Positions 8,636-51,900 are shown, counted from the first letter of the stretch. The stretch is 64,000 nucleotides of DNA from an uncultured archaeon (GCA_902384555.1 CABMCD010000027.1:25067-89066), one strand, 5' to 3'. A program made the numbers and translations. The notes: generated by a model not told the origin, from the letters alone.

Positions 8636-10612
8636 TTGCATATGGCCGACATTTTGGACAAATTCATTTCACAGGCGCTGGAAAACGTCCAGAGCGGATA
8701 TTACGAGAGCGTGAAGGAGAAAGCACAGGTGAAGAAAGTCTCGCTGGCCTCGCGCCTTCGCTCCAATCCGTTCTCCCTTATTTCCGAAATCAAGCACGCC
8801 TCCCCGGCCGGGGAATATTCGTTTGAGGGCGTGGATGACCTGAAGATGGCCCGCGCCTTTCAGGAGTGCGGAGCGGACGCCATTTCGGTGGTGGTGGAGC
8901 CCAAGATATTCAAGGGAGATTTGAAGACCGTGGCGGTGGCCAAACAGGTGGGCCTGCCGGTGCTGTTCAAGGATTTTGTGCTGGATGAAAGACAGGTGGA
9001 GGCGGCCAGCCGGGCAGGCGCGGATTGCATGCTCTTGGTTATGCGCGTCATGGACCGCCAGAAATTGGATGCGCAGAAGTTCGTGGAAATGGCGCATGCG
9101 CGGGGCTTGGAAGTGCTGCTCGAATGCTATGATGCGGACGAGATGAAAAGGGCGATTGAAACCGATGCCGATGTGCTGGGCATCAACAACCGGGATTTGC
9201 AAACCCTCAAAGTGGATTTGAAGCGCACGCAGGAGATTGTGGAAAAGTTTGGAGCCAAATTGGACCGGCCCCTCATATCGGAGAGCGGGGTGAAGAGCCG
9301 GGCCGATGCCGAATTTTTGCAGAAATTGGGCGCCAAGGGCATTCTGGTGGGCACGGCATTGTGGACCGCCAAAGACGTGAGGGAAAAAGTGAGGGAGCTT
9401 AAATCCATTTCCTCCAGCCCTGCCCTGCAAAAGCATTTCGGCAGCTTTGGTGGGCAGTATGTGCCCGAAATTCTGGTGCCCGTGCTCGAAGAGCTGGAGC
9501 AGGAATTCGCCAAGGCCATGGCCGACCCCAAATTCCGCTCCGAACTTGAGTATTATCTCACGCACTATGCCGGAAGGCCCACGCCGCTGTATTACGCCAA
9601 GCGCCTGAGCGAGAAGACGGGCTTGAAAATCTATCTCAAGCGCGAGGATTTGCTGCACACCGGGGCGCACAAAATCAACAATTGTTTGGGGCAGGCGCTG
9701 CTGGCGAAAAGAATGGGCAAGACGCGCCTGATTGCCGAAACCGGGGCCGGACAGCACGGCGTGGCGAGCGCCACCGCGGCTGCGCTCTTGGGCCTTGAGT
9801 GCGAAGTGTATATGGGCCGCGAGGATGCCGAGCGCCAAGCCCTCAATGTCTACCGCATGAAACTGCTGGGCGCCAAAGTGGTTGTGGTGGAGGCCGGCTC
9901 GCGCACGCTCAAGGATGCGGTGAACGAGGCCATCCGCGACTATGCGGCCAATTTCAAGAACACGCATTACATGCTGGGCTCGGCCTTGGGGCCGCACCCC
10001 TTCCCCTCTATGGTGGCCGAATTCCAGTCCGTAATCGGCAAAGAGGCCAGAGAGCAGATTTTGAAGGCCGAAGGCCGTTTGCCGGATTATTTGGTGGCCT
10101 GTGTGGGCGGCGGGAGCAATGCCATCGGCCTCTTTGGGGCGTTTTTGCAGGACAAGGAAGTGAAGATGATTGGCGTGGAAGCAGGAGGCTTGGGCATTTC
10201 GAGCGGAAAGCACGCGGCCCGCTTCAGCCAAGACGGCAAGATAGGAATTTTGCACGGCACCAAGACTTATGTGCTCGAAGATAAGTATGGGCAAATTCAG
10301 GACACGCACTCCATTTCGGCCGGGTTGGACTATCCGGCCGTGGGGCCGGCCCATGCCCAGCTCGCGAAGAGCGGACGGGCCAAATACGTGTCCTTGCAGG
10401 ATGACGAGGCGCTGGAAGGCTTCCGGCAGCTGGCGCAAATGGAGGGCATCATTCCGGCGCTCGAATCCGCGCATGCGGTGGGATATTTGAAGAAATTGGC
10501 CAAGGAAATCTCCCCGAATTCGGTCGTGATTGTGAATTTGTCGGGCCGCGGCGACAAGGACGTGGAGCAAATCGCGAGGCGGGAAAAGAAAGAAGAAACA
10601 GGCCAATCTTGA
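8636..10612 (+). CDS. trpCB: fused indole-3-glycerol-phosphate synthase / tryptophan synthase beta chain
   Basis: N-terminal ~260 aa is IGPS-like ([15 protein letters not shown]). C-terminal ~395 aa is TrpB-like ([12 protein letters not shown]...HTGAHKINN...GGGSNA). Confidence 0.88.
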
Positions 10613-12244: not shown

Positions 12245-13272
12245 AGGAAATGACGCTCCGAGCGCAAAGCGGGACCACCCGCATACTACTGGATGCGAAG
12301 CTGGAGGACTTGTCCAAGCACGTGCCCCCCAAAACACAGGCCGTGATGGTGGTGGATGCCGAAGTGCTTAGGCTTCACGGCCCGCGCCTGCCCAAACTGC
12401 CAGTCATTTCCATCGAGGCCACGGAGGACAACAAGAGCCTCGACACCATCTGCAAAATCTACGAATTCTTCATGCAGCAGGAGCTGGACCGCACGGGATT
12501 TGTAATCGGCATTGGCGGCGGCATCGTGTGCGACATGGCCGGCTTCGCGGCTTCCACCTACATGCGCGGCGTGCCGTTTGCCTACGCGCCCACCACGCTT
12601 CTGGCGCAGGCCGATGCGTCACTGGGCGGCAAGACCGGCGTCAATTTGCAGGGCTACAAAAATCAGGTCGGGACATTCTGCCAGCCAAGCTTTGTGCTCA
12701 TGGACCTCTCCGTTCTCAAGACCCTGCCCGGGCCGCAAGTGCGGGACGGATTTGCGGAAATCATCAAGCACGCCGCCATTGCGGATGCGCAACTGTTCGA
12801 AATGCTGGAGAAGAACGCAAAAGATGCGCTTGTGCTGGATGAGAAGGCGCTGCGCGCCATTCTGCTCCGCTCGCTGGCCGTCAAGATTTCCGTTGTGGAA
12901 AAAGACGAGAAAGAGGCCGGCGTGCGCCGGCTGCTCAACTTCGGGCATACGCTGGGCCATGCGATTGAGAAAACGCAGCAAAAAAGCCATGGGCAGGCCG
13001 TGGCGATTGGGATGGTGCTGGCGGCCAAGATGTCGGTGGAAAGAAAGATGATGAAAGAAGGCGAGTGCAAACGGCTGATTTCGCTTTTGCGCGCGTATGG
13101 CCTTCCGACCGAATTGGATGGACGGCCGGATGCCCTGCTGCAAGCCGTAACGCACGACAAGAAAAGGGCGGGCGCAAGCCTCCATATGGTGCTGCTGGAA
13201 AAAATCGGGCAAGCTAAAGTGGTGGCAGTGCAAATGGACAAACTAGCGGGAGATTTGCATGATTTGCGTTAG
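12241..13272 (+). CDS. aroB: 3-dehydroquinate synthase
   Basis: [20 protein letters not shown]...[12 protein letters not shown], the DHQS metal/NAD-binding motifs. Confidence 0.85.
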
Positions 13273-15271
13273 CCTCATCGGCCCCACCGTGCGCGACTGT
13301 TTGGCCCAGCTGAAAGAAGTTTCGCTGGCCGAAATTCGGATGGATTTGATTTCGGATTTGGATGAGGGGGGCGTGAAGAAAATATTTTCAAGCCCGGTCA
13401 AATTGATTGCAACCTGCAGGCCGAAGGACAAGGAAAACAAGCAACAAAACGCCCGGCGCGAGCAACTGCTTCTTCTGGCCATTTCCGGCGGGGCGGCCTT
13501 TGTGGATATTGAGCTGGAGTCGCCGGCCGAAATGAGAAGACGAGTGGCGGAAGCGGCCAAAAAGGCCGGATGCAAGGTCATTGTTTCGCATCATGATTTC
13601 GAAAAAACCCCCATGCGGCAGGAGCTGGCCGGGATTAAGGCCCGCTGCCTTGAAGAGGGGGCCGATGTGGCGAAATTGGCCTGTATGGCCAGAAGCGAAG
13701 AGGACGTGCAGCGAATGCTGGATTTGTGCGACCCGCGCACCGTGGCGATTGCCATGGGTCCGATGGGAGTGGAAGCCCGGGCCAAAATTGTTTCATTGGG
13801 CAGCCCCTTCACCTTTGCCGCCTTTGATGAAAAGAGCGCGGCCGCGCCGGGGCAGGTGGGCAGAGAGAGGATGGAAAAAATGATGCAAGAGACCGGGAAG
13901 GCCGCGAGGGACGGGAAAACGACGGAGAACGGGGAGCACCCGGCTTCACGCACCCCCATTTTGCTGGCCGTCAGCGGCAATCCGGTGCATCACAGCCAAA
14001 GCCCGGCCCTGCACAATGCGGGTCTGGCCAGCTTGGGAATAGAAGGCGCCTACTTCCGCCTGCTGGGCGGCGATGCGGCCGAGGTGCTGCGCACCGCGCG
14101 GGCGATGGGCTTGCGCGGCCTGAGCGTGACCTCGCCCTTTAAGGAGGAGATGGCGCACTTGGTGCATGAATTGAACGGCGCGGCGCGTGAGCTGGGGGCA
14201 GCCAATACCGTGGTGCTGGAAAAAGGAAAGGCCGTTGGATACAATACGGATGGGTTGGGCGTGAGCGGCCCGCTGGCGGCGGCCGGCGTGTCCCTTTCGG
14301 GCGCACGGGCAGTGGTGGTGGGCTCGGGCGGGGCGGCCAAGGCGGCCGTGCTGGCCTTGCAGAAAGCGGGCGCGAGTGTGGTGATGGCCAACCGCACGGT
14401 TGCGAAGATAGAGGCATTTGCCAAGAAATTTGGATGTGAGACCTGCACGCTCGAGCCGGCCGAGCTGGGGCCGAAACTGGCGCAAGCGAGCATACTGGTG
14501 TCTTGCACCAGCACCCATGAGCGCTTCATCGAGCCCAGCCTGCTGCATTCGGAGTTGGCGGTGCTGGATGCGCATTACACCAAACCCACTGCACTGGTGG
14601 CCGATGCGAAGGCGGCCGGATGCAAAATCGTGTCAGCCCAAGACTGGCTGCTCTACCAGGGGCTGGAGGCCTTCCGGCTTTTCACCAAGAGAGAAGCCCC
14701 GGCCGAGGCCATGCGGCAAGGCGTGCTATCGGCCCAGCAGGCCGGACCCAAGCAGGCCAACAAGATTGCCCTTATCGGAATGATGGGCTGCGGCAAGAGC
14801 GCGGTCGGCAAGAGGCTGACCGACGGAGCCGGGCTGCGGCTGGTGGAAATGGATGCCGAGATTGAGAGAAAGGCCGGCAGGCGCGTGGCTGAAATATTTG
14901 AAAAAGAGGGAGAAGCGAAATTCAGGCAAATGGAATCCGCCCTGCTAAGCGAGCTGGCGGGGCGCAAAGACAAGTTCGTGGTGTCCTGCGGGGGCGGCGT
15001 GGTGCTCGACGAGCGCAATGTCGAGCTGTTGCAGACGCATTTCTACACCGTGTGGCTCTGGGCGGACGAGGAGGACATTTTGGCCCGCGTGGGCTCGAAA
15101 ACCAGCCGGCCCCTGCTCAACCGGCCCGACAAGCGCGAGGCCGTGCGCCGCCTGCTGGAGGAGCGCAAGGTGCGCTATGCGTCAGCCTGTGATTTGGCCA
15201 TCAGCACCCAAAACCGGACGCCCAAGAAAATCGCCGAGATGATTGCTCATGAAATTGGTCTTGCCAACTGA
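13259..15271 (+). CDS. aroDEK: trifunctional 3-dehydroquinate dehydratase (type I) / shikimate dehydrogenase / shikimate kinase
   Basis: N-terminal type I DHQase (SHHDF, Lys in KLA). Middle AroE (AVSGNPVHHSQSPALHN, GSGGAAKAA). C-terminal bacterial P-loop AroK (IGMMGCGKSAVGKRL). Confidence 0.85.
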   Translation: MICVSLIGPTVRDCLAQLKEVSLAEIRMDLISDLDEGGVKKIFSSPVKLIATCRPKDKENKQQNARREQLLLLAISGGAAFVDIELESPAEMRRRVAEAAKKAGCKVIVSHHDFEKTPMRQELAGIKARCLEEGADVAKLACMARSEEDVQRMLDLCDPRTVAIAMGPMGVEARAKIVSLGSPFTFAAFDEKSAAAPGQVGRERMEKMMQETGKAARDGKTTENGEHPASRTPILLAVSGNPVHHSQSPALHNAGLASLGIEGAYFRLLGGDAAEVLRTARAMGLRGLSVTSPFKEEMAHLVHELNGAARELGAANTVVLEKGKAVGYNTDGLGVSGPLAAAGVSLSGARAVVVGSGGAAKAAVLALQKAGASVVMANRTVAKIEAFAKKFGCETCTLEPAELGPKLAQASILVSCTSTHERFIEPSLLHSELAVLDAHYTKPTALVADAKAAGCKIVSAQDWLLYQGLEAFRLFTKREAPAEAMRQGVLSAQQAGPKQANKIALIGMMGCGKSAVGKRLTDGAGLRLVEMDAEIERKAGRRVAEIFEKEGEAKFRQMESALLSELAGRKDKFVVSCGGGVVLDERNVELLQTHFYTVWLWADEEDILARVGSKTSRPLLNRPDKREAVRRLLEERKVRYASACDLAISTQNRTPKKIAEMIAHEIGLAN

Positions 15272-31700: not shown

Positions 31701-33142
31701 TCAAGGCGCCCGCGACTGGGGCGGAAGGGGAAGTTGGCGGCGGGACGGAAGGGACGGGCGGACCGACGAATGGGATCGGGCCGAAGGCCGCGGGTGGGAC
31801 GGAAGAAGCAGGCACCGGACAACAGACGAGCATTGATGCCGGATACTGGAGGAACGGCCAGCCGCGGATGAACATCGGCGGGCAGGACGGGATTCCGGAC
31901 GGGCAATATGTTCTCTTTGAAAACAAGAGGGGAAAGGGAAAGCGATGGGTACTGGCCAACGAAGACGGCAAAACGGAGGAGCTGCAAGACCCCAAAATTG
32001 GCCAGAAGCTGGACCAGTTGTGGAAAAAGAACAAGCCGGCGCCGGAAACGGAAACAAACGCGACAAAAAGGACCATGGCGGATGACATCTTCTCCGCCCA
32101 AGTGGGGCCGGCTGAAATCGAATTCGCGGGCAAGATAAAGAGCCTGTATGAGAAAGCACTTAACACCAAGACAGATGTGGAACTGCAAGGAATTCTGACA
32201 GAAATGGAAACGCTCGTCTCGTCCGAGCCGCTGACGCCAAGCAGGATGAAAGCGGCGGCAGAGGCGCTCGGCATTGATGCGGGCCGGATGAACGCTCTGG
32301 AGCAGAACTTGGAGGTGCTTTGGCCCATCTGCGACCGCTTCTCGGACGCCATGATGGCGGGCCAGGCCGAAATGGGCGGAAGCGGGACGACCTGCATCTA
32401 CTTGGGCCGGGACGGTTGGGCCATGATGTTTGCCCATGCGCTCAAGACCGGCAACGCGGACGGAAGCATCCGCTCGCTGGTGTTCACGCGCGACATGATG
32501 GAAGTAGGCGAGGGAGAAAGCCATGCCGGGCCTTCCGGTGCGCCGGCCCCGTTCAGCATACAATACCGGACACTGCGCCGCGGGGCTTTCAACTCGAATC
32601 CGGTCGGACAGGCAGATTATGCCCTGAAAACCTCTGAGTTCATGGACAAGTATACGGCTTGGTTCGGCAAACAGTGTGAAAACGAGGGATTCCGCAATGA
32701 AGTCGTGAAGGTGTATGATTACATCAAGGCGAACGGGTCAGTGAAGACCGATGCGCAGGGGCGCATCGTCCCGCAGAACTTTTTGGTCGCCGACATCGGG
32801 TTCATTTCGTTCCCCCCGTTCATCAAGAGCGTCATTGAGTACGGGGCCGTGCATGTGGACGGCCTTCCGGCCGGACAGGTGAAGGGAGGCGTGATGTATT
32901 ACCAGACGGCGGCCGGATTCGAATATCTGCCCAATGTCCGCAAAGCCGACGGCTCGGACGGCTCCGGCTTGGCGAGCGTGAGTAAGGTTGAAAAGAAGAG
33001 GCTGGAACCAGTCAACTTCAGCGAACCGGTGTCCCAAGTGGACGCCCAAGGAAACGCGGTGCTGGACATCGGCCCCCGGCGCGCATCCGATGCGCTGTTC
33101 TTTTATTTGATGATGGGCAAAACCATGCAGGATGCGAAGTGA
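25706..33142 (+). CDS. giant multidomain protein (2478 aa) with predicted TM hairpin, internal repeats, caspase-like His/Cys dyad, coiled coil and GHKL/histidine-kinase-type ATPase domain
   Basis: Uninterrupted 7.4-kb ORF with complex composition. HATPase_c boxes around aa 1885-1985: N-box AVGNLCSNAERYG, G1 VMDDGPGF, G2 QVGLSTVKL. HG...SC dyad at aa 1482 and 1524. Two hydrophobic helices around aa 656-730. Confidence 0.8.
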   Translation: MFVLQMGALKPDASNQPASGGADALFSSSSFAQMLKAALYNMDMIGGGQVRLTPLLPTFGAQEQQEALQKVLDGMGRNDVAVEVRDQGLYLRKLPPKQNEDVVLTHVQPGTTFPFRFPPVDPGMRVEDVLDAVLTQQLGPRMAAMDPAQAEDLKQIYGTLAERYRDDPTHEHRVDVTMGEDGKWKAAEVQAVPVPMGAKEAMEQFRAKPGVESALDAIRAVKTEMDGKKTTGAGQKKYDSSLRQQYLLPILSALTPQERTELVQKIGTDPRFEREEKDYLRQQLAKTSSYVQGKPALLKLGAGLKGLDLPELQERMKRTVDIYLSSPGSNLGTAAAQTFNKLFADALGKCTSVEQYRQVVQYGFSLVSGTYLQKITYDKGEKKGQLVIDIEQMAKQGMGGPNMQGAVRSEQMLAFLTGKYNEMKDELESEARFSYARAMNISSYRLTYQNGKPVLEPNPDIPAGPLSPYAPANLAKNMPKDPAARENYLQTKINEMQALESRSRLQRVMGYEQPLTVTEGGGTRHVPGYMDLVNDPHFLADGGLRMNWNGDARKRADVGFFLLNSAFAAEQTADSYAAAPGSERGVARLRQIAKAYQQLEKDFKAGKLDIVDALDGARDLQKQFDATMQKLPQDLFVAGGHATLFGMEVDSEFFRWTVANKAAIGTVVFTGMSLIPGGQIGSAIGFTYMAANDIYEGIRSGNAEQIIMGSAMLLPFAGTAMMARAGRLAEVGEAAGALRWTRAGTAASRTGEVVLYAGMGKGAWEIYKGINEGYFSYSSDIGSIGSLVLPVGIMHTAKALKTKTVSGKAEVKGETAKVPAEVKEEPGTKTQMPAPNEVETKTASLETGKTGTAVAGLDVDAAKRPLSQLGANKTTDAAANKGAEETTALPTEVEARQWEVFREFCIKAAEDYAQYEREHPDVNETDPLNNTPASVLSKNYDQLVELAKTNELAAMKLQWLTKYSPDFFQSADGGRVRQLVLAGQDNPLLMEVARDLAWRRPQLLDPASLAVVLNESGQATARIMQGGGKFDYPLALHIFSVNPALLAEEAPMQALLKWAHNSRDPAAFRLIDRLVNDPGLPQARESLYKAFDAMTFHELDVRNPAAQKFEGTENLLRRFDRWRDDLGTQPRPVLTAEEQAQWNAVELLLSDVGKFEATYTDPASPLADPINRLPPELFSKNYVRLLELCKESEYGPQILSILIRRTPEIFDDPGHRRMRQLLGAAEDSPRLWDAVAELAGERPDLFNDQSIGQLFSNYPADQAPMWLVSKLAKSQPWLMGGERAMDALLRFNAFDEAGLVLRTLNNSHATNAFCLAAWQELPFLQSLTFRDVHSMFEPLKNYEPFPGNKYPYQEVPELLRSMQSLEARSPGAVADLYNGFGIRRFDRYSAEEMAQQHDNQQYAQQSGQAPQTDKPVLLWITAVNDHNGVFATHSGKIQNLKNDFNVIYVEAGNKLELASRFGRTLRAYNPDNQPVTVAVNMHGSGFSGELGSGRHGDLNTGDVILNRNYDPYLPAGSAVLWISCKLGQEGGLAHKFMQKYDKYFVTGFDGSTGFDNINYMGKSKGYFEFDITPNRSDVRVISSEPPTPEVKTGKAAATGNAYEPAAQITPEQTNPVAAEKTAAGVAAEGEAPKLSEKQMEEQAILHDAKNAVVACDTPTKALQMYLDAFAESPERTALEGNLSALEADISIINQGFDKLSNLSDPAYRAKLEKQKADISGQLGEIGPDYREEAQKKLDQINRDLADLDDPDYRERLTADLRVRSRQVEAKMKEVNLEVDRLMNANSLSEADAADIGMFNNGLRNNGADLHGALGELRALDETGVHQPEVGEYNIVAAVRNYFKSASKSGSKFGANVSVLEVGPDGTRREAGDHFTALYDPTLLRRAVGNLCSNAERYGNSKAWMEVEITPTEVRIRVMDDGPGFRPQDVGRAFDFKSGIENYGNKKSSQVGLSTVKLDVEKMGGTVAITDGPQLGGGPTTVEIRLPRGKGVEGETGAEIKAPATGAEGEVGGGTEGTGGPTNGIGPKAAGGTEEAGTGQQTSIDAGYWRNGQPRMNIGGQDGIPDGQYVLFENKRGKGKRWVLANEDGKTEELQDPKIGQKLDQLWKKNKPAPETETNATKRTMADDIFSAQVGPAEIEFAGKIKSLYEKALNTKTDVELQGILTEMETLVSSEPLTPSRMKAAAEALGIDAGRMNALEQNLEVLWPICDRFSDAMMAGQAEMGGSGTTCIYLGRDGWAMMFAHALKTGNADGSIRSLVFTRDMMEVGEGESHAGPSGAPAPFSIQYRTLRRGAFNSNPVGQADYALKTSEFMDKYTAWFGKQCENEGFRNEVVKVYDYIKANGSVKTDAQGRIVPQNFLVADIGFISFPPFIKSVIEYGAVHVDGLPAGQVKGGVMYYQTAAGFEYLPNVRKADGSDGSGLASVSKVEKKRLEPVNFSEPVSQVDAQGNAVLDIGPRRASDALFFYLMMGKTMQDAK

Positions 33143-34545: not shown

Positions 34546-34802
34546 CTCTGACGAAGCGATTGAAGGCCCAGACGGGACCACCTCCCAGATTCGTTTGGAG
34601 GAGCCGGCGGCGGTCAGGTCGGTGATGGCGCGGGTGCAGTCGATTTTGCGCATATCAGGAATTCGAATTTCAAGTTAATAAGAGCGGCTTTAAGCCGGAA
34701 CATATTCATTTCATCCGCCCCCTCTCATATCGACGTGAATTGGCCGGCGGTTCCGGCGGCTTTTTTATTCTCCGGTTTCCTCAAGCGCATGCGTTGATTG
34801 TT

Positions 34803-35780
34803 ATGGCGGATTCTCCCATCTATGACGTGCTCGTGATTGGCGCCGGCTGCGGCGGCTGCTCGGCGGCCATGTACGCGGCGCGCTTTGGAATGAAGGTGCT
34901 GATGCTCGGCGAGCTGCCGGGCGGCACCATCACCCAGACGCACGTGGTGGAAAACTACCCCGGATTCGAGACCATCACCGGCCTTGAATTGGGCGAGCGG
35001 CTGCTCAAGCACGCGCAGGCCTATGGCGCGGAACTGAAGATGGAGAAGGCGCTCAAGGTGGAGAAAAAAGCGGACGGAACGTTCGCCACGACTACCGATG
35101 CCGAGGCCACCTACCTCTCGCGCACCCTCATCGCCGCCACCGGAGCGGAGTGGAAGAAGCTGGGCGCGCCGGGCGAAAAAGAGTACGCCAACAAGGGCGT
35201 GCACTACTGCGCGCTCTGCGACGGCTCGTTCTACAAGGGCAAAACGATTGCCGTGGTGGGCTCGGGCGATTCGGCCGCGAAAGAGTCGCAGCTGCTGGCC
35301 GAATACGGCGCGCATGTCTATGTCTTTGTGCGCGGCCATGAGCTGCACGGCGAGCCCATCAACAACAAGCGCGTGGCCGCCAACCCCAAAATCACCGTCT
35401 TTACGGACGTGCAAATCCGGGAGATTGCCGGCCAGCCGAAAGGCAAGATGACGCACCTGAAACTGACCAAGCCCTGCGCGCCGATGGTGAAGCAGGCGGA
35501 CGGCTCGCTCAAGCCGGGCCAGCCGACCGATTCCTTCCCGGCCGACGCGCTCTTCGTGCTCATCGGCCACTCGCCGCTCTCCATCCTGCTCAAAGAAATG
35601 GGCGTCGAGCTCAACGCGCGGGCGGAAGTGAAGGTGGACCGGCTGATGCGCACCAACATCGAAGGAGTGTATGCGGCCGGCGACGTGAACGATTCGGAGT
35701 TCAAGCAGGCGATTGTGAGCGCATCGGACGGCGTGGTGGCCGCCTACTCGGCGCATCAGCTGCTGGAAAAAAAGAAATAA
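34803..35780 (+). CDS. trxB: thioredoxin-disulfide reductase
   Basis: VIGAGCGGCSAA FAD motif, CALCDG redox-active disulfide and GSGDSA NADPH motif. Start at MADSPIYDV. Confidence 0.85.
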   Translation: MADSPIYDVLVIGAGCGGCSAAMYAARFGMKVLMLGELPGGTITQTHVVENYPGFETITGLELGERLLKHAQAYGAELKMEKALKVEKKADGTFATTTDAEATYLSRTLIAATGAEWKKLGAPGEKEYANKGVHYCALCDGSFYKGKTIAVVGSGDSAAKESQLLAEYGAHVYVFVRGHELHGEPINNKRVAANPKITVFTDVQIREIAGQPKGKMTHLKLTKPCAPMVKQADGSLKPGQPTDSFPADALFVLIGHSPLSILLKEMGVELNARAEVKVDRLMRTNIEGVYAAGDVNDSEFKQAIVSASDGVVAAYSAHQLLEKKK

Positions 35781-35814
35781 TACGCTTTTAAGTTTCCGCC
35801 CGCCTGCACGGGCC

Positions 35815-36504
35815 ATGCGCGCGCAAACCTCGGCCGAATGGGCCTTCATTCTGGGCGTGGTGCTCACGGCCGCCCTGCTGGTGCTGGCCACCTCCAGCCT
35901 GCTGCCCGCCGGCGTGGGCGGGCGGGTTCAGGTTCAGGACTCGGTTGCGTATTGGGGCTCGCAGGCGCGGCCGCTGGAAGTGGCCGGCTGGCAGATGGAG
36001 GCCACCGGAGCCAACCTCACCGGCGCCAACCTTACCCTGGTGTTCGCCAATGCCGGCACCGAACAGGTGCGCATCCGCAAAATCATGCTCGCGCCCGGCT
36101 CGTTCACCCAAGTCTACAACGCCTCCGGCACAAGCCTGGGAACGGCCGACGCGCTGGACATCCTGCTGCTGCCCTCCGACCGGCTGACGCTGGTGCTGAG
36201 GCAGCAAGCCGGGGCCGCAGGCGCCTACGCCGTCCCGCCGCTCTACACCCTCAACCTCACCATCACCTATGACGGGACGTTCCCCTCCATGGTGGAGAGC
36301 GGGCGCGTGCCGCTGGCGGGCGAGGCCAAGGTCATCGACCAGGCCGAGGGCATCCCCTGCCGCACCAACGGCGACTGCGCGTCCGGCTACTGCCACGACA
36401 CGGGAGGTGGCAAGATTTGCGTGGAATGTATCGCCAACGGCCAGTGCTCGTGCCCGCCCCCCAAGAACGCGACCTGCGTCAGTTACGCCTGCCAGTGCAC
36501 TTAG
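35815..36504 (+). CDS. pilin-like surface protein with class III (archaeal prepilin-type) signal peptide and Cys-rich C-terminus
   Basis: MRA|QTSAEWAFILGVVL with Gln+1 and Glu+5 then a hydrophobic helix. NLTGANLT, NAS and NLT sequons. C-terminal CRTNGDCASGYC...CVECIANGQCSC knot-like block. Confidence 0.6.
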   Translation: MRAQTSAEWAFILGVVLTAALLVLATSSLLPAGVGGRVQVQDSVAYWGSQARPLEVAGWQMEATGANLTGANLTLVFANAGTEQVRIRKIMLAPGSFTQVYNASGTSLGTADALDILLLPSDRLTLVLRQQAGAAGAYAVPPLYTLNLTITYDGTFPSMVESGRVPLAGEAKVIDQAEGIPCRTNGDCASGYCHDTGGGKICVECIANGQCSCPPPKNATCVSYACQCT

Positions 36505-36636
36505 GCGGGGCCAAGAAGCGCCGCTTTGGCGGACAAAAGCGGCCGCGTTGCGGGGCTTGAGGGCCCGAATTTATTCTTTTTTGCGACGGAGGGCCGAGGG
36601 CAGGCTTTTAATCCCTTTTGGCGAGTAGGTGGCCGT

Positions 36637-39600
36637 ATGGGAGAAGAAGAGAGAAGGGGCGTGAGCAGCGCCGAATTCCTGGCCCTGGCGGCCATCCTTT
36701 TCGTGGCGGCGCTGGTGCTGTCCCAGCTGCTCGGCATCCTGCCGCTGCAGGGCGTCCTGTTCTCGCAGTCCAGAACCTATTGGAACGCGCAGGCCTATCC
36801 GCTCAAAATCACCGACTGGGCGCTCTTGGTGGCCAACGGGACGGGCGGAGACGGCATCTACCGCACCGAAGCCAATCTCTCCATGGTGCTGCTCAACCCC
36901 ACCACCAGTCCGCTCACCATGCAGGCCATCAGCATCGGGCCGGGCAATTTCAGCCAAGTATATGATTTGGACACCCACCAATGGCTGGGGCCGGCGAACC
37001 AGCTCAACATCCGCATCGAGCCGGGGCAGAAGAAGGGGCTCATCGTCCAGCACTGGCGGCTCGGCCCGCCATCCAGCGCGCCGCTGGCCGAGCGCTTCGA
37101 GGCGGACCAGGAATACCAGTTTGACGTGCAGTTCACCTATGCCGGGCGGCTCGAATCCGATTCCGCGCAGACGGCCGCCGGACAGGGCGGCATCCTTACC
37201 CTGCAGCACGGCAGCCTGCCGCTGGTGGGCCAGACGCGCTATGCCGGCATCCCCAGCGGCGTGTGTCCGAGCGGCACGAGCTATTGCGCGGACGGGAGCT
37301 GCTGCGGGGCCGGACAGTGCTGCGGCGGGACGTGCAAGCTGCCCTCCCAATACACCTGCGACGCCTCGTGCACCTGCTGCCCCCTGAGCCAGACGCCGTG
37401 CAACGGCGTGTGCTGCCCCTCCAGCCAGATTTGCGTGAACGGCGCCTGTCAGGCCCCGAACTGCACGTCTCCCTCGTTTGCCTGCGGCCGCTTCTGCTGC
37501 CCCGACAACTACTATTGCGCCAATGACAGCACGACCGATTACGGACAGGCCTGCGTGCGGATATGCAAGAGCCCCACCAACGGCACGTGCGGGCAGTGGT
37601 GCTGCCCCGACGACCAGACCTGCAACTTCGCAGGCGCCCCCTCCATCGACACCGCCTGCGCGCCCACCTGCGCCCCGCAGGTGCAAACCAGCTGCCTGGG
37701 CCCCAACTGGACGGCGAACTGCTGCGAGAACGTCAGCAGCGTCGTCTGCGCCAACGCGTCGGGCACCTGCTGCGACCTCAACGTGGGCATGGCCTGCAAT
37801 TTCCTCAACTCCAGCGGCAACTTCACCGCCTGCTGCAACAAGACCAACCAGCAGTGCACCACCGGCGGCTGCTGCTCCAATCCGGGCGGGGCCTGCACCA
37901 CCAACGCGGACTGCTGCGACGGCTGGGGCTGCAGCAACGGCGTGTGTTCCAGCTGTCCCGCCGGCTGGAGCGCCTGCTGCGCCCAGCCCACGCTGCTGTG
38001 CAACTTCAACCTCTCCAACCCCGACCCGATTTCCTCGCGCAACTGGAACCCGGGGCTCTATCAGGACTGCTGCCAGCACAACCTCGACAATAACGGCAAC
38101 TACATCAACGAGAGCTGCCAGGGCAACTGGTTCGACGGCACCCGCTTCTGGTACGGCTGCCCCCCGGACAACATGCTGACCTCCACCTGCCTCAACGACA
38201 CGGCTTGTGCAAGGGGACCCTACTGGTACAACTACACCAATTACTCCACCGACGGCGTGATATACCGCCCGTGGCCGGCCGGATGCCCCTCCTTGAGCAG
38301 CGGCGGCTACCCCAACAACAGCGGCTGCTGCATCAACAACACCTGGGACTACTGCAACCCGGCAGAGGGCGTGTACTGCTGCCCCGGAACCTACTGCGGC
38401 CCGGACAACAAGTGCACCTATCCCTTCACCTGCCCCTCCAACACCGTCTACATCGACAACGGAGACCATGTGGACAACTACTGGGACTGCTGCCCCAGCG
38501 GCAACGTGAGCTGGCAGAACGCCACCACGGCCGTGTGCTGCCCCAACCCCAGCCTCATGAAAAGTTTCTACGACCCCAACACCGGAGCGCTCTACAGCCG
38601 CTGCTGCAACTCGGCCAACGACACGCTGTGCGGCGCGAATGGCGTGTGCTGCCCCGCCGGCCTGTGCGACGAGGTGAGCGGAACCTGCTGCGGGACCGGC
38701 ATGACGGTGTGCCAGACCGGCTACAATGCCAACATCTGCTGCAACAGCACCACCAGCAACTGCGTGCCCAACAACGGCCCGCGCAGCTATGGCGCGTATT
38801 CCGCCTGCTGCCCCAAGGGCGCGAACGGCAACCAGACCACCTGCGCCAACGGGGCCTGCTGCGACACCACCACCAGCGGCATGGTGTGCACCGGCGACGG
38901 CTGCTGCAACACCACCAGCGGCTCGGGCTATGAGATTTGCAGCGACCAGAACGACACCTGCTGCGGCCCCAGTCCGACCCGCGAGTGCAAGAACGAGCTC
39001 AGCTATACGGGAGGCTACCCGGTGGCGCTGATGGGCAGCGTCTGCTGCGCGGGCGACCAGGTGGCCTGCCAGAAGCAGTGCTGCTCCTCGGAATCCAACT
39101 GCATCCCCGCCAAGTGCCCGAGCATCAACGAGTCGGGCAGCCTCGTCATGCTGGACTGCAGCCCCAAGTGCTGCGAGAACTACAAGGGCACCCCGCCCAA
39201 TCCGCAGCTGTGCGGCAACACCACCTGCTGCTATGGCGCCAGCAGCTGCCTGCAGCCCTCCGACGGCAGCAGCCCGCGCTGCTGCCCCTCGCCCGATTTC
39301 GGCTCCACCCCCGTGCTGTGCGGCGGCACGGGTGAATGCTGCGACGTGGCGGGAGGCTCGGTGTGCTTCGGCACGGTGTGCTGCCCCCCGCCCAACAACA
39401 CGGCCTATTGCGCCGGCAACAACCAGTGCTGCAACCAGAGCTGCTCGCAGCCCGGCAACGTGTGCTGCTCGGGCGGCGGCGGGCCGACGCCGGACTCCTT
39501 GGGCAACTACCACTGCTGCCCGGCGCCCAACAACACCGCCTATTGTCTGGGCAACGGCATGTGCTGCAACGAGAGCTGCAAGGCGGGCGACCTGTGCTGC

Positions 39601-40872
39601 ACCTCGCCCACCAAAGAGTCGGCGCAGGGCCCGCTGGGCGACTACCGCTGCTGCCCCGACGGCAAGACCGAGATTTGCACCGGCGACAACACCTGCTGCG
39701 ACCACTGCACGGCCGGCACCGACGGCAAGACCTACTGCTGCCCGGCGCCCAACAACAAGATATACTGCGCGGGGGCCAATGGGCAGGGAGCCTGCTGCGC
39801 CAGCCCCACTTGCACCCCCGGAACGGACGGCTATAACTACTGCTGCGCGGCGCCCAACAACGTGAGCTACTGCCCCGGCAGCCCGCAATGCTGCTCCCAG
39901 AACTGCATCGACGGGCACTGCTGCCAGGACACCCCGCCGGACGCGGACCCGAACGGCAACATGTACAGCGTCGTCTTCTGCGCGGGCGACAACCAGTGCT
40001 GCGGGCACACCTGCTCGTCCGGGCACTGCTGCCCGTTCGATACGCATGGAAACCTGCAGGACTATGTGAACGGCCAGTGCTGCCCAACGGACCAGAAATA
40101 CTATGACTCGAGCGCCGGAAAATACCTGTGCTGCAGCGGGTCACTGTGCAACGGAGAGTGCTGTCAGGCGAGCGGGAAGGTTTGCACGACATATACAGGT
40201 TTGGACGGTAATCCGCACAGCACCTGTTGCCCGCCCGGCCAAGTGGCGGATGCCAGCGGCGTGTGCTGCGACTCTAAAGACCGAGTGGACATTGGCGGCG
40301 TCCTGACCTGCTGCCCGGCCGCCCAGCAATGCCCGGCCGGTGCTCCGACACAGTGCTGTCCGAGCGGACAGAGTTGTGCAACGTATTCGGATTCGTTTGG
40401 AAACCCACAGACTAAATGCTGTCCCGTCGGCCAGCAGGCCTTGGAGGGAAGCGGCCAATGCTGCGACCCGGCCAGCATCCAAACCGTCAACGGCAACCAG
40501 ATTTGCTGCGACGGCTCCGGCCTCAGCGCCTGCATGGTGAACAATGTCGAGGGCACCCCCAATCCCTTCTGCTGCCCGCTGGATGGAAATGGCCAGTGCA
40601 TCATGTCGGTTTGCGGCGGAGCCTGCTGCGACGAGTCCATCGACCCCATAACCAAGGCGCCGCGCAACGTCTGCCACCGGGAACTGACCCCGCCGCAATG
40701 CCTGCCGGGCCTGACATATGACCCCGGACACACCTGCCCCACCCCGCCCAACCCGCCGGGGTCGGTATATTGCGGCAGCGGCGGCATGACCGGAAGCACC
40801 GGATACTGCTGCCCGCCCGGAACCAACTGCTCAGACCCGAATCTGGACCTGAAGAGCTGTATAGTCCAGTAG
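36637..40872 (+). CDS. giant cysteine-rich (about 16% Cys) pilin-like surface glycoprotein, paralog of the upstream gene in its N-terminal domain
   Basis: Start at MGEEERRG|VSSAEFLALAAILF (class III signal-like). The N-terminal ~230 aa aligns with the upstream gene (YWxxQAxPL, IxPGxFxQVY). The following ~1200 aa is dominated by CC dipeptides and repeated CCPxPNNTxYCxGN modules. Confidence 0.75.
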   Translation: MGEEERRGVSSAEFLALAAILFVAALVLSQLLGILPLQGVLFSQSRTYWNAQAYPLKITDWALLVANGTGGDGIYRTEANLSMVLLNPTTSPLTMQAISIGPGNFSQVYDLDTHQWLGPANQLNIRIEPGQKKGLIVQHWRLGPPSSAPLAERFEADQEYQFDVQFTYAGRLESDSAQTAAGQGGILTLQHGSLPLVGQTRYAGIPSGVCPSGTSYCADGSCCGAGQCCGGTCKLPSQYTCDASCTCCPLSQTPCNGVCCPSSQICVNGACQAPNCTSPSFACGRFCCPDNYYCANDSTTDYGQACVRICKSPTNGTCGQWCCPDDQTCNFAGAPSIDTACAPTCAPQVQTSCLGPNWTANCCENVSSVVCANASGTCCDLNVGMACNFLNSSGNFTACCNKTNQQCTTGGCCSNPGGACTTNADCCDGWGCSNGVCSSCPAGWSACCAQPTLLCNFNLSNPDPISSRNWNPGLYQDCCQHNLDNNGNYINESCQGNWFDGTRFWYGCPPDNMLTSTCLNDTACARGPYWYNYTNYSTDGVIYRPWPAGCPSLSSGGYPNNSGCCINNTWDYCNPAEGVYCCPGTYCGPDNKCTYPFTCPSNTVYIDNGDHVDNYWDCCPSGNVSWQNATTAVCCPNPSLMKSFYDPNTGALYSRCCNSANDTLCGANGVCCPAGLCDEVSGTCCGTGMTVCQTGYNANICCNSTTSNCVPNNGPRSYGAYSACCPKGANGNQTTCANGACCDTTTSGMVCTGDGCCNTTSGSGYEICSDQNDTCCGPSPTRECKNELSYTGGYPVALMGSVCCAGDQVACQKQCCSSESNCIPAKCPSINESGSLVMLDCSPKCCENYKGTPPNPQLCGNTTCCYGASSCLQPSDGSSPRCCPSPDFGSTPVLCGGTGECCDVAGGSVCFGTVCCPPPNNTAYCAGNNQCCNQSCSQPGNVCCSGGGGPTPDSLGNYHCCPAPNNTAYCLGNGMCCNESCKAGDLCCTSPTKESAQGPLGDYRCCPDGKTEICTGDNTCCDHCTAGTDGKTYCCPAPNNKIYCAGANGQGACCASPTCTPGTDGYNYCCAAPNNVSYCPGSPQCCSQNCIDGHCCQDTPPDADPNGNMYSVVFCAGDNQCCGHTCSSGHCCPFDTHGNLQDYVNGQCCPTDQKYYDSSAGKYLCCSGSLCNGECCQASGKVCTTYTGLDGNPHSTCCPPGQVADASGVCCDSKDRVDIGGVLTCCPAAQQCPAGAPTQCCPSGQSCATYSDSFGNPQTKCCPVGQQALEGSGQCCDPASIQTVNGNQICCDGSGLSACMVNNVEGTPNPFCCPLDGNGQCIMSVCGGACCDESIDPITKAPRNVCHRELTPPQCLPGLTYDPGHTCPTPPNPPGSVYCGSGGMTGSTGYCCPPGTNCSDPNLDLKSCIVQ
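39360..39910 (+). repeat. tandem coding repeat modules (CCPxPNN[TKV]xYCxGxxxCCxxxC) within the Cys-rich gene
   Basis: At least four copies visible at about 39375, 39511, 39733 and 39838. The tgctgc hexamer is highly recurrent. Confidence 0.6.
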
Positions 40873-40969: not shown

Positions 40970-42460
40970 ATGAAATCCCCTATTCCGACCACCAAAAACA
41001 ACGTTGTGCGTGAAGCCGGCCTCAAGGTCGGCGAACTTGGAAAAGACGTCTTGAATTTCGCCACGGCGAATCCGGGCAAGACGGCGGCAGGCGTGGCCTT
41101 TGTGGCCAAGCTCCTGACGCCGGACGTGGCTTCGGCGCAGGACCCCTCGATTGTCAACATCACCCGCGTGGATGGCGCCATCAACAAGGTCATTCCCTTT
41201 GAGGGCGGCACTTACAATATTGTCGGCACGTCCAGCACCGTCACCAAGACCATGTCGCTGGACTCGGTTTACCTGTGCCAGACGGTGGATTTGAATTCCT
41301 CGTCTTCCTTCAAGTTCTTCGGGAACTTGGAAGTGAAGGTGGCCGGCTACGACAACGGCGTGCTGACGCTCAAGCCCGTCAAATCCGCCTATGGAACCAT
41401 CCAAATCCAGAACGGCGACAAGCACGGCGAGTGGACGTTTGAGGTGGCGGAGCAGTCGGCTTCGGTCCTCAAGCTGCGCGCGGTTGCGACCAACCAGACC
41501 GTGAAGCAGGGCGACACCCTGCGCGGCCCGGCGGGCAGCATTGACCTGACCAACGTGCCGTCCCCGGCCTATACGCAGGCGATTATCCGCTCCATCTCGA
41601 ACACGACCATTCCGACTGACCAGGGAGACGTGACGATTGCGAACGGCTTCAAGATTCAGATTGTCCGCGACAGTTTGGCGAAGAACCCGGTGAAGAATGA
41701 CTTCTATGTTTTGAATGGGTCTGGAACCACTGTTATCGGCGAGTTTGTAGTGGACCCCGGCACCAAGAAGGGCTACTACAAGGACACCACGGGCACGACG
41801 GAGTTCAAGAAAAACAGTACTCCGGCAGTCAGTATTAGCGCAACCAATGCCATTAATGCGGCTGGAAAGAGTGCGGATAGTAAACCTATTGTTCAACACT
41901 CGATAAAATTCGATAACACCAGTTCAGACCGCTTGATGTTTGCTATCCAAAATGGCGAGATAGTTAGCCAAACATTCGATTTGGTTCACTCGACAATCAA
42001 GGGTACTACCGTGATTGACTCCCTTATGCAGTCCGGCCTGCTCTCCTACCTCGACCCCGTCTCCAACTTCAAGGACACCGTCGTCACGGGCCAGAACGGC
42101 AAGCTGGAAGTCGTCATCGCCTACAACGGCAACGACCCGCGCAACAACGTCCAGCTCGTGCTGGGCAAGCCGGACTCCAGCGTCACGGACGTGCGGGAGG
42201 GCCCGGCGGGCGCCATCCACGCCGACATCCGCGTCTACCCCAACCCGATTGCGGACCGCGTGATGAACGTCGAGCTGCCTCAGGCCGTTGAGAAGGACCG
42301 CAAGTTCTACATCTACACCCAGCTCGGCCAGCAGGTGGGCGAATTCACCATCCCGGCGGGCGAGCAGGTCGGCCATGTCTTCCTCAAGGACCTGTCCACG
42401 GGCACCTACTTCGTGACCGACGGCAAGCGCGGCCTGCCGATTGTGGTGTTCGACAACTGA
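40970..42460 (+). CDS. secreted/surface protein with N-terminal anchor helix and T9SS-like (Por_Secre_tail-type) C-terminal beta-sandwich domain
   Basis: C-terminal RVYPNPIADRVMNV...FYIYTQLGQQV...GTYFV...KRGLPIVVFDN matches the Bacteroidota C-terminal sorting-domain pattern. Many NxS/T sequons and an N-terminal hydrophobic helix. Confidence 0.6.
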   Translation: MKSPIPTTKNNVVREAGLKVGELGKDVLNFATANPGKTAAGVAFVAKLLTPDVASAQDPSIVNITRVDGAINKVIPFEGGTYNIVGTSSTVTKTMSLDSVYLCQTVDLNSSSSFKFFGNLEVKVAGYDNGVLTLKPVKSAYGTIQIQNGDKHGEWTFEVAEQSASVLKLRAVATNQTVKQGDTLRGPAGSIDLTNVPSPAYTQAIIRSISNTTIPTDQGDVTIANGFKIQIVRDSLAKNPVKNDFYVLNGSGTTVIGEFVVDPGTKKGYYKDTTGTTEFKKNSTPAVSISATNAINAAGKSADSKPIVQHSIKFDNTSSDRLMFAIQNGEIVSQTFDLVHSTIKGTTVIDSLMQSGLLSYLDPVSNFKDTVVTGQNGKLEVVIAYNGNDPRNNVQLVLGKPDSSVTDVREGPAGAIHADIRVYPNPIADRVMNVELPQAVEKDRKFYIYTQLGQQVGEFTIPAGEQVGHVFLKDLSTGTYFVTDGKRGLPIVVFDN

Positions 42461-51777: not shown

Positions 51778-51900
51778 GCCCTGGTAGTCCAACCTGGATA
51801 GGACGCGAGCCTCCGAATGGCAAGTGCTACCTTAAGCACGAGTGCGAGTAGCCTGAATAGGTGAAAGCTCACGATCCGGGTTCAAATCCCGGCTGGGGCG
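51778..51900 (+). tRNA. intron-containing tRNA, probably tRNA-Arg (anticodon CCG)
   Basis: Acceptor GCCCUGG/CUGGGGC, D-arm GUCC-AACCUGGAUA-GGAC, anticodon loop CUCCGAA, T-arm CCGGG-UUCAAAU-CCCGG. ~49-nt insert 3' of the anticodon loop with an internal hairpin. TATA ggatataaag 26 nt upstream and a T7 tract downstream. The anticodon stem has one C-A mismatch as folded. Confidence 0.55.

Follow-up and report, generated by a model that had tools for sequence, protein, structure and literature searches.

A giant cysteine-rich protein with a pilin-like N-terminus and a tandem array of old, diverged modules in an uncultured archaeon

A stretch of 64,000 nucleotides from an uncultured archaeon (GCA_902384555.1 CABMCD010000027.1:25067-89066; the whole stretch is called the window here) carries on its plus strand a gene for a protein of 1,411 amino acids, referred to below as the giant (P0001). 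The protein contains 194 cysteines (13.7%), 59 CC pairs and 34 N-glycosylation sequons. The longest version of its open reading frame (ORF) starts with a TTG at 36526 and ends at 40872 (+), and the ATG at 36637, which is the start used by NCBI, is common to the orthologues described below, Met1 being invariant in the alignment with them. The gene and its parts are as follows.

36637..40872, plus strand: gene of the giant Cys-rich pilin-like protein, 1,411 amino acids plus stop (NCBI VVB57404.1, 'Uncharacterised protein [uncultured archaeon]')
36637..36792, plus strand: charged N-terminus MGEEERRG, then VSSAEF... and a hydrophobic helix (residues 10–52); by homology a diverged class III (prepilin-type) signal peptide
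36805..37242, plus strand: beta-sandwich head domain (residues 57–202), common to a small paralogue and more than 500 archaeal proteins, mostly of 150–200 amino acids
37252..40869, plus strand: Cys-rich region (residues 206–1411) of 59 CC-initiated units, mostly CC-x4-9-C-x3-8

The window is archaeal, as it encodes FttA/aCPSF1 with a KH domain, a geranylgeranyl reductase and an intron-containing tRNA, and its remaining gene content is of the housekeeping kind (shikimate and tryptophan pathways, MetRS, SerRS). The relatives of the giant are annotated as Candidatus Micrarchaeota or Micrarchaeia metagenome-assembled genomes (MAGs), with one NCBI record given as Marsarchaeota, and the best reading of the giant is a single-copy secreted protein of a Micrarchaeota (DPANN) archaeon. 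Scans of the whole protein with Pfam and NCBIfam matched 0 families, the repeat region alone gave 0 Pfam matches even at E ≤ 10, and PDB sequence searches with the repeat region and with an N-domain profile returned nothing credible; a nanobody match in the PDB (E = 0.23) was judged to be a chance one.

The region between 39379 and 40092 contains six to seven tandem modules of the form CC-x7-9-C-x3-6-CC-x2-3-C with 6–8 Cys each, four of which belong to a “CCxxPNN” subtype. An iterated hidden Markov model (HMM) of the module delimited seven tandem modules at residues 910–1152 (39364–40092) and an outlier copy at residues 719–745; with bias correction it recognised the module only in the giant and in two of its orthologues, P0002 and P0003. 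The modules, all on the plus strand, are as follows.

39379..39513, plus strand: module R1 (residues 915–959), CCPPPNNTAYCAGNNQCCNQSC and a CC sub-unit; sequons NNT and NQS
39514..39648, plus strand: module R2 (residues 960–1004), CCPAPNNTAYCLGNGMCCNESC and a CC sub-unit; sequons NNT and NES; nearest copy to R1
39649..39735, plus strand: module R3 (residues 1005–1033), CCPDGKTEICTGDNTCCDHC; same Cys framework, no PNN and no sequon; the 62% DNA copy
39736..39840, plus strand: module R4 (residues 1034–1068), CCPAPNNKIYCAGANGQGACCASPTC; PNN-type, no sequon
39841..39918, plus strand: module R5 (residues 1069–1094), CCAAPNNVSYCPGSPQCCSQNC; sequon NVS
39919..40092, plus strand: degenerate modules R6 and R7 (residues 1095–1152), CCQDT...FCAGDNQCCGHTC and GHCCPFD...GQCCPTD

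An initial annotation of the window, made from the sequence alone, had placed at least four copies of a Cys module between 39360 and 39910 and had given each of them a sequon. Four PNN-type copies do lie there, among the six to seven modules, but the array continues to about 40092. The sequon at the PNN site is present in three of the four PNN-type copies (NNT, NNT and NVS), the first two of which have a second one (NQS and NES), but the third copy, which reads ..PNNKIY.., has none. The module pairs scored 118, 95, 92, 90 and 80 with BLOSUM62 over 22-residue windows, against a shuffled maximum of 53.8 ± 4.4. When Cys-Cys matches were set to zero and the Cys were kept fixed in the shuffles, the pairs still scored 64, 62, 46, 45, 41 and 40 against 31.7 ± 3.8 (maximum 39), and the periodicity thus exceeds both compositional and Cys-spacing bias.

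At the DNA level, a direct-repeat search found four 66-nt copies (repeat family D2) starting at 39379, 39514, 39646 and 39841, that is with spacings of 135, 132 and 195 nt, of which the second, third and fourth are 82, 62 and 74% identical to the first. The top pair of in-frame 66-nt windows has 54 of 66 positions identical, whereas the codon-shuffled coding region gave 42.1 ± 1.2 (maximum 45). The outcome that would have spoken against the initial annotation, no periodicity beyond composition, was therefore not observed, since the repeats exceed the controls for composition, codon usage and Cys framework alike. Over their whole 135 nt, units 1 and 2 agree at 67% of positions, and exact direct repeats reach 24 nt at most (at 39512 and 39734). 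The copies are too diverged for Tandem Repeats Finder (TRF), which reported no array with the period of the modules. R1 and R2 share 17 of 21 core positions, whereas the other pairs, including those with the module of the orthologues, share 11–14; R1/R2 is thus the only pair that looks like the product of a later duplication. The repeat modules are real; they are old, diverged copies and probably not a fast-changing tract.

The DNA of the gene is also repetitive and tgctgc-rich, as had been pointed out: TGC makes up 182 of the 194 Cys codons, TGCTGC occurs 55 times in frame, and 56 of the 98 TGCTGC of the whole window fall within this gene. Long additional ORFs accompany it, the following among them.

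36571..40047, minus strand: antisense shadow ORF of 1,158 amino acids, rich in Ala, Gly, Val and Arg; not a gene

The GC content at its codon positions does not follow the pattern of high GC at third positions (GC3) of the real genes of the window, whereas the sense frame has a GC3 of 0.88. The spurious ORFs expected in the initial annotation are thus there, but the repeats as such, to which they had been attributed, are probably not their cause; the codon composition of the whole gene (GC3 = 0.88) would account for them. For annotation, the lesson is that the many long ORFs at this locus are shadows of one real gene and that repeats need not mean hypervariability.

Among 5.8 billion clusters, only three full-length close relatives of the giant were found, namely P0002 (41.5% identical), P0003 (40.4%; both by pairwise alignment) and P0004 (37%). 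The four genomes have the same gene order, in which thioredoxin reductase is followed by the small paralogue (sometimes), the giant, proteins with Por_Secre_tail, a C-terminal sorting domain of type IX secretion system (T9SS) type (sometimes), proteasome beta and FttA; the shared neighbourhood indicates that P0002–P0004 and the giant are orthologues. Cysteine is conserved at 182 of 183 positions between P0002 and P0003, compared with 76% for other residues, and across the orthologue alignments its conservation is 77–99% against 30–76%. The ratio of nonsynonymous to synonymous substitutions (dN/dS) between P0002 and P0003 amounts to 0.30 for the Cys-rich part and 0.21 for the head domain, and the gene is under purifying selection. 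These two proteins are 79.6% identical with 7 gaps, none of them of 8 amino acids or more. In a composition-corrected blastp (database of 1e9 residues), residues 915–1303 of the giant aligned with residues 668–1031 of the distant relative P0025 at E = 2.6e-7, which indicates that the array is ancestral and predates the divergence of these lineages.

The complement of modules differs between the orthologues. PNN-type copies number four in the giant, one each in P0002 and P0003 and none in P0004, and P0004, when read by eye, apparently has five C-x-x-P-N-x-T-C-G-x-x-CC modules, a module that occurs twice in the giant. On a long evolutionary time scale the scaffold has thus both grown and shrunk, and to this extent its description as expandable in the initial annotation stands, but for the strain level it is unsupported. 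The collections searched contained no strain-level relatives, the 90% cluster of the giant having a single member, and JGI metagenome contigs, scanned with an exact 22-mer and with a protein pattern, gave zero matches.

The giant starts with MGEEERRG followed by VSSAEFLALAAILFVAALVL, and cleavage is predicted after Gly8. The features of a class III leader are present, with a short charged leader, a small residue at −1, a Glu near +5 (Glu13, invariant in the two alignments A1 and A2) and then a hydrophobic helix. An exhaustive HMMER scan with the N-domain profile A1, built from the first ~200 residues of the giants and their small neighbours, collected 542 relatives, mostly of 150–200 amino acids; a word-indexed homologue search with the N-domain profile had given only 3 matches, and it was the exhaustive scan that reached the wider family. 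Of 57 sampled N-domain relatives, 34 matched PF04021 Class_IIIsignal (E ≤ 0.01; best E = 3.4e-7), and two giants, the syntenic orthologue P0004 (24.1 bits) and P0011 (25.1 bits), passed its gathering score of 23.7 bits. The AlphaFold2 (AF2) model of the N-terminal part, made from a 57-row alignment, has a mean predicted local distance difference test score (pLDDT) of 82.7 and places helices at residues 10–33 and 37–52 before the beta-sandwich of residues 57–202; as modelled, the N-terminal helix and beta-sandwich have the layout of a type IV pilin.

The following features lie directly upstream of the giant.

35815..36504, plus strand: small paralogue P0005, 229 amino acids, class III-type N-terminus MRA/QTSAEW, same beta-sandwich, and a 53-residue tail with 10 Cys
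36605..36611, plus strand: TATA-box-like heptamer CTTTTAA, ~29 nt 5' of the ATG of the giant, read from the sequence

P0005 scored below threshold against PF04021 (E = 0.074), and adjacent small paralogues also occur in the related locus L001. Its 53-residue Cys tail is missing from its counterparts P0006 (172 amino acids) and P0007 (200 amino acids). A second CTTTTAA at 35785–35791 precedes the ATG of P0005 by ~27 nt; the heptamer at matching distances 5' of both ATGs suggests, in the light of what is generally known of archaeal promoters, that each of the two genes is transcribed from its own promoter into an almost leaderless mRNA. Past the stop codon there is an oligo-T run.

Other archaea have the pilin-like head fused to other long tails (P0030–P0033, P0027, P0045 and P0051), which are Gly-rich tracts or repeated Ig-like modules that by eye only are reminiscent of CARDB, which suggests that the head domain serves generally to anchor large cargo at the surface. 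The Micrarchaeota MAG WY5.bin156 contains two N-domain genes (L003 8001-8833 and L005 8001-8291) that are 61% and 57% identical to the head of the giant; both are truncated by the contig ends, and the contig coverage is ~1.7x.

In the Cys-rich part that follows the head, 59 CC dipeptides compare with 31.1 ± 4.6 expected, and no CCC run occurs. The number of Cys per module, counted by hand from segments, is even, and the CC-C-CC-C double unit recurs across the family, being tandem at residues 915–1130 of the giant and 668–855 of the distant P0025. All giant relatives have Cys contents of 12.4–14.3%. The Cys of this stalk-like part are probably paired in disulfides, as judged from their number and framework. 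The AF2 model of residues 893–1165 shows successive short beta-hairpins with pLDDT of 73–85 over most of the first ~170 residues. A Foldseek search of this model against the PDB gave no significant match, the best ones being follistatin (E = 0.021, template modelling (TM) score 0.16) and the EGFR family (E > 1). With no Pfam model and no solved homologue, the Cys framework may represent a new repeat fold.

Against the 34 sequons of the giant, composition predicts 16.8 ± 3.6 (z = 4.8), none of 2,000 shuffles reached 34, and a similar excess was seen in P0002–P0004 and in the small paralogues; the modular, Cys-framed and sequon-bearing scaffold of the initial annotation is thus confirmed, and the giant would be glycosylated. 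A micrarchaeon is known to express N-glycosylation genes (bioRxiv 10.1101/2021.04.28.441871). Of the sequons, 33 lie upstream of residues 1076–1396 (39865..40825), a stretch of 320 residues with zero sequons. In P0002, P0022 and P0024, too, sequons are scarce in the C-terminal quarter, and it is the least conserved part, with identities between P0002 and P0003 of 54–74% in most C-terminal windows against ~90% in the head. Being more variable and, as predicted, carrying fewer glycans, this quarter is a candidate for the end that makes contacts.

Among known systems, the class III signal peptide and type IV pilin-like proteins (PF04021) come nearest to the N-terminal part, with which they share the charged N-terminus, the Glu at about +5, the hydrophobic helix and the beta-sandwich. 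Most relatives of the giant are indeed pilin-sized (150–200 amino acids), and the small paralogue is encoded directly upstream of it. The giant differs from them in its ~1,200-residue Cys-rich extension (13.7% Cys) and in not lying in a pilus-assembly locus. The Epd minor pilins of Methanococcus and the sugar-binding proteins of the Sulfolobus bindosome, in which the same signal stands on large non-pilin cargo, are examples of the PF04021 type. At the keyword level, two surveys of archaeal pili held no description of a ~1,200-residue Cys-rich pilin extension (PMC4858521; bioRxiv 10.64898/2026.04.22.720090), and the literature searched, as far as its available text goes and including papers on the Micrarchaeota surface, contains no description of pilin-type anchored giants with a very Cys-rich repeat stalk.

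For the Cys-rich part, granulin/epithelin (PF00396; zebrafish granulin AaE, PDB 6cku) offers the closest likeness, in vicinal CC pairs 5–10 residues apart, predicted stacks of short beta-hairpins and an aromatic residue or His before CCP ([HY]CCP). Granulin, however, has four consecutive CC pairs flanked by single Cys (C-C-CC-CC-CC-CC-C-C), whereas the giant alternates CC-C-CC-C, and unlike granulin it is archaeal, sequon-bearing (putatively N-glycosylated) and made of dozens of units. By sequence, membership in the granulin family is not supported, the repeat region having no Pfam match at E ≤ 10 and a probability of 5.8% by hhalign against human granulin A, a weak alignment that falls on R6/R7 (39919..40092). 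With the eukaryotic Cys-rich arrays of follistatin and furin-like/EGFR proteins the giant shares the theme of extended chains of small disulfide-knotted modules in secreted glycoproteins, but it shows no significant structural or sequence similarity to them (TM about 0.15) and its Cys spacing is different. The “cysteine-rich repeats” of a 2026 preprint were likewise set aside, as they have a different Cys spacing and belong to eukaryotic proteins. The variant-specific surface proteins (VSPs) of Giardia and the surface antigens of ciliates are Cys-rich variable surface proteins with about 12% Cys, a repeated framework and variable loops; they have CXXC motifs and form large gene families with switching. 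By contrast, a single giant was seen in each syntenic locus; its position is conserved, it is under purifying selection and its motifs are CC. The surface-layer (S-layer) protein SLP_Mh comes from the same phylum and is also a large, N-glycosylated surface protein, but it has the S-layer domains PF05123 and TIGR01564 and almost no sulfur residues, whereas the giant has neither domain and 13.7% Cys (bioRxiv 10.1101/2021.04.28.441871). The possibility that the giant is the Micrarchaeota S-layer protein was rejected, SLP_Mh being a different gene (bioRxiv 10.1101/2021.04.28.441871).

DPANN archaea such as Micrarchaeota need physical contact with host cells, and the contact molecules are largely unknown. 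Micrarchaeota live as ectosymbionts attached to host archaea, and thin pili-like filaments have been observed on them (PMC11329633). On balance we favour, with some reservation, the reading that the giant is a membrane- or pilus-anchored, glycosylated and disulfide-stapled stalk or adhesin of an episymbiotic archaeon, in which the repeats are structural spacers; our confidence is fairly high for the structural description and moderate to low for the function as adhesin or stalk, which is deduced from the sequence. The class III signal peptide, hydrophobic helix and beta-sandwich head would constitute the architecture of an archaeal type IV pilin, and the N-terminus would either anchor the giant in the membrane or insert it as a minor or tip subunit of a pilus-like filament. 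Since a 140-kDa extension on each subunit would be hard to pack in a filament, a role as major pilin is disfavoured, and a minor or tip subunit or a bindosome-like membrane anchor appears preferable. The Cys-rich part would fold extracellularly as a long chain of beta-hairpin mini-modules, and up to 97 disulfides could cross-link the hairpins by a granulin-like laddering through the CC pairs. N-glycans would coat the stalk except for its C-terminal quarter. The outcome would be a stalk resistant to acid and proteases, whose sequon-poor distal end may meet the host cell or a surface. The repeats would have arisen by ancient internal duplication and one later duplication (R1/R2), as structural spacer units and not as a rapidly variable tract. 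A conserved and clearly secreted family with a pilin-type anchor and a Cys-rich stalk is a concrete candidate for host contact. How an organism with a very small genome could bring about the extracellular oxidation of almost a hundred cysteine pairs is a question that follows from it.

Several results weigh against this reading. The N-terminus of the giant itself (RRG/VSSAEF) did not match PF04021 at E ≤ 1, being diverged from the family consensus ..[RK]GQ..E[YF]L.. with V instead of Q at +1, and its signal-peptide class is therefore assigned by family homology. No pilus-assembly ATPase, platform protein or prepilin peptidase was found among the larger ORFs scanned in the window and in five related loci. 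The sequon excess is absent in the distant giants P0011, P0019, P0025 and P0028. The model of the stalk, from a six-row alignment, is of moderate confidence only (mean pLDDT 68.8). A wider proposal, which we regard as unlikely, is that the giants form an undescribed class of archaeal surface appendage, in which a pilin-type N-terminus would display a ~1,200-residue rod with a fold absent from the PDB. The rod would consist of ~60 beta-hairpin units, stapled through their CC by up to 97 disulfides, and would serve Micrarchaeota as the host-contact or attachment fibre, with the conserved downstream T9SS-type sorting-domain proteins as partners in one surface system.

The variation in repeat number between strains that the initial annotation expected would make the giant a contingency-type variable surface protein, in which recombination or slippage shifts the number of modules. 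The tandem array with a 24-nt exact repeat common to two units is in keeping with this, as are the module subtype counts that differ between orthologues of ~40% identity and the faster evolution of the inter-Cys loops than of the Cys framework. Near-identical tandem units, the hallmark of contingency genes, were however not found, as the units are 62–82% identical in DNA (67% over the full unit) and TRF detected no array. Moreover, the gaps between P0002 and P0003 (79.6% identity) all stay below 8 amino acids, so that there is no module-sized indel, the array is common to the distant P0025, and a dN/dS of 0.30 means purifying selection; strain-level variation thus finds no support, and a contingency protein is very unlikely. 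That the gene is a spurious ORF or compositional artefact of GC-rich DNA, as its many long overlapping ORFs on both strands might suggest, has a negligible probability in view of the shared synteny of the orthologues, the dN/dS of 0.2–0.3 with Cys conservation of 99%, the sense-frame GC3 of 0.88, the 542 relatives of the N-domain and the repeats that exceed codon-shuffled controls.

A different role of the protein has to be considered as well. The giant may be a structural component of the envelope and not an adhesin, that is a strut or spacer from the membrane to the S-layer or a glycocalyx fibril, anchored by the N-terminal helix. Its one conserved copy at a housekeeping locus with no pilus genes nearby, the constant length and Cys content across the family and the heavy sequon load agree with such a component, and Micrarchaeota do have a pseudoperiplasm of 20–25 nm beneath the S-layer (bioRxiv 10.1101/2021.04.28.441871). 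But the family is patchy, with about a dozen giant clusters at 50% identity among the best 150 of the 542 N-domain relatives, a C-terminal quarter that is sequon-poor and variable would be expected of an exposed interaction end rather than of a buried strut, and the S-layer protein described for Micrarchaeota is a different, sulfur-poor one; we hold this role to be possible but rather improbable. The Cys content of 13.7% also brings to mind a metallothionein-like extracellular metal sink, which in acidic waters rich in metals would chelate Cu, As, Cd or Fe through its 194 thiols, many of them in vicinal CC. Acid mine drainage is where Micrarchaeota, the group to which several relatives belong, were first described (PMC11329633), and the adjacent thioredoxin reductase gene is kept in three of four loci. 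Against this, the secretion signal and many sequons imply that the thiols would face an oxidising exterior, the even Cys number per module and the strict framework with variable loops are as in disulfide-rich domains, the predicted modules are beta-hairpins with a granulin-like match, and neither CxC nor CxxC motifs dominate. Relatives also occur in non-acidic Micrarchaeota MAGs, thioredoxin reductase is cytoplasmic, and synteny among close relatives is weak evidence. A metal sink is accordingly most improbable, and the anchored stalk or adhesin remains the reading that we prefer.

The thioredoxin-disulfide reductase gene (34740..35780, plus strand) lies just 5' of the pilin-like pair, an adjacency that is kept in the related loci L001 and L004 and not in L002. 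The adjacency may be coincidental synteny or may be tied to the handling of a protein with 194 Cys; we do not claim a functional link, since only three closely related genomes show this gene order and L002 and the distant loci lack it. ARAGORN placed a tRNA-Leu(caa) at 35476..35552 (+), inside the thioredoxin reductase ORF, which Rfam did not confirm and which is probably a false positive. Rfam in turn found a 123-nt tRNA at 51778..51900 (+), probably intron-containing, that ARAGORN had missed.

Por_Secre_tail is a domain typical of Bacteroidota. In the window, proteins with this domain are encoded directly 3' of the giant (40970..42460, plus strand), and they have the same place in two close genomes, L001 (9282-9821) and L002 (14361-17798); the match in a distant Micrarchaeota locus (L006 13697-15718) is weak. 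Upstream, an ORF of 2,478 amino acids (25706..33142, plus strand) has HATPase_c as its sole Pfam match (residues 1879–1987) and may be another lineage-specific giant protein; the contig of P0004 encodes a 1,465-residue HATPase_c protein in the same neighbourhood. For a genome affiliated with DPANN, a complete pathway to the aromatic amino acids is unusual. The window encodes a fusion of IGPS (TrpC) with a PALP (TrpB-like) domain at 8636..10612 (+), and at 13259..15271 (+) a single 670-residue protein that combines dehydroquinase, shikimate dehydrogenase and a bacterial-type shikimate kinase.

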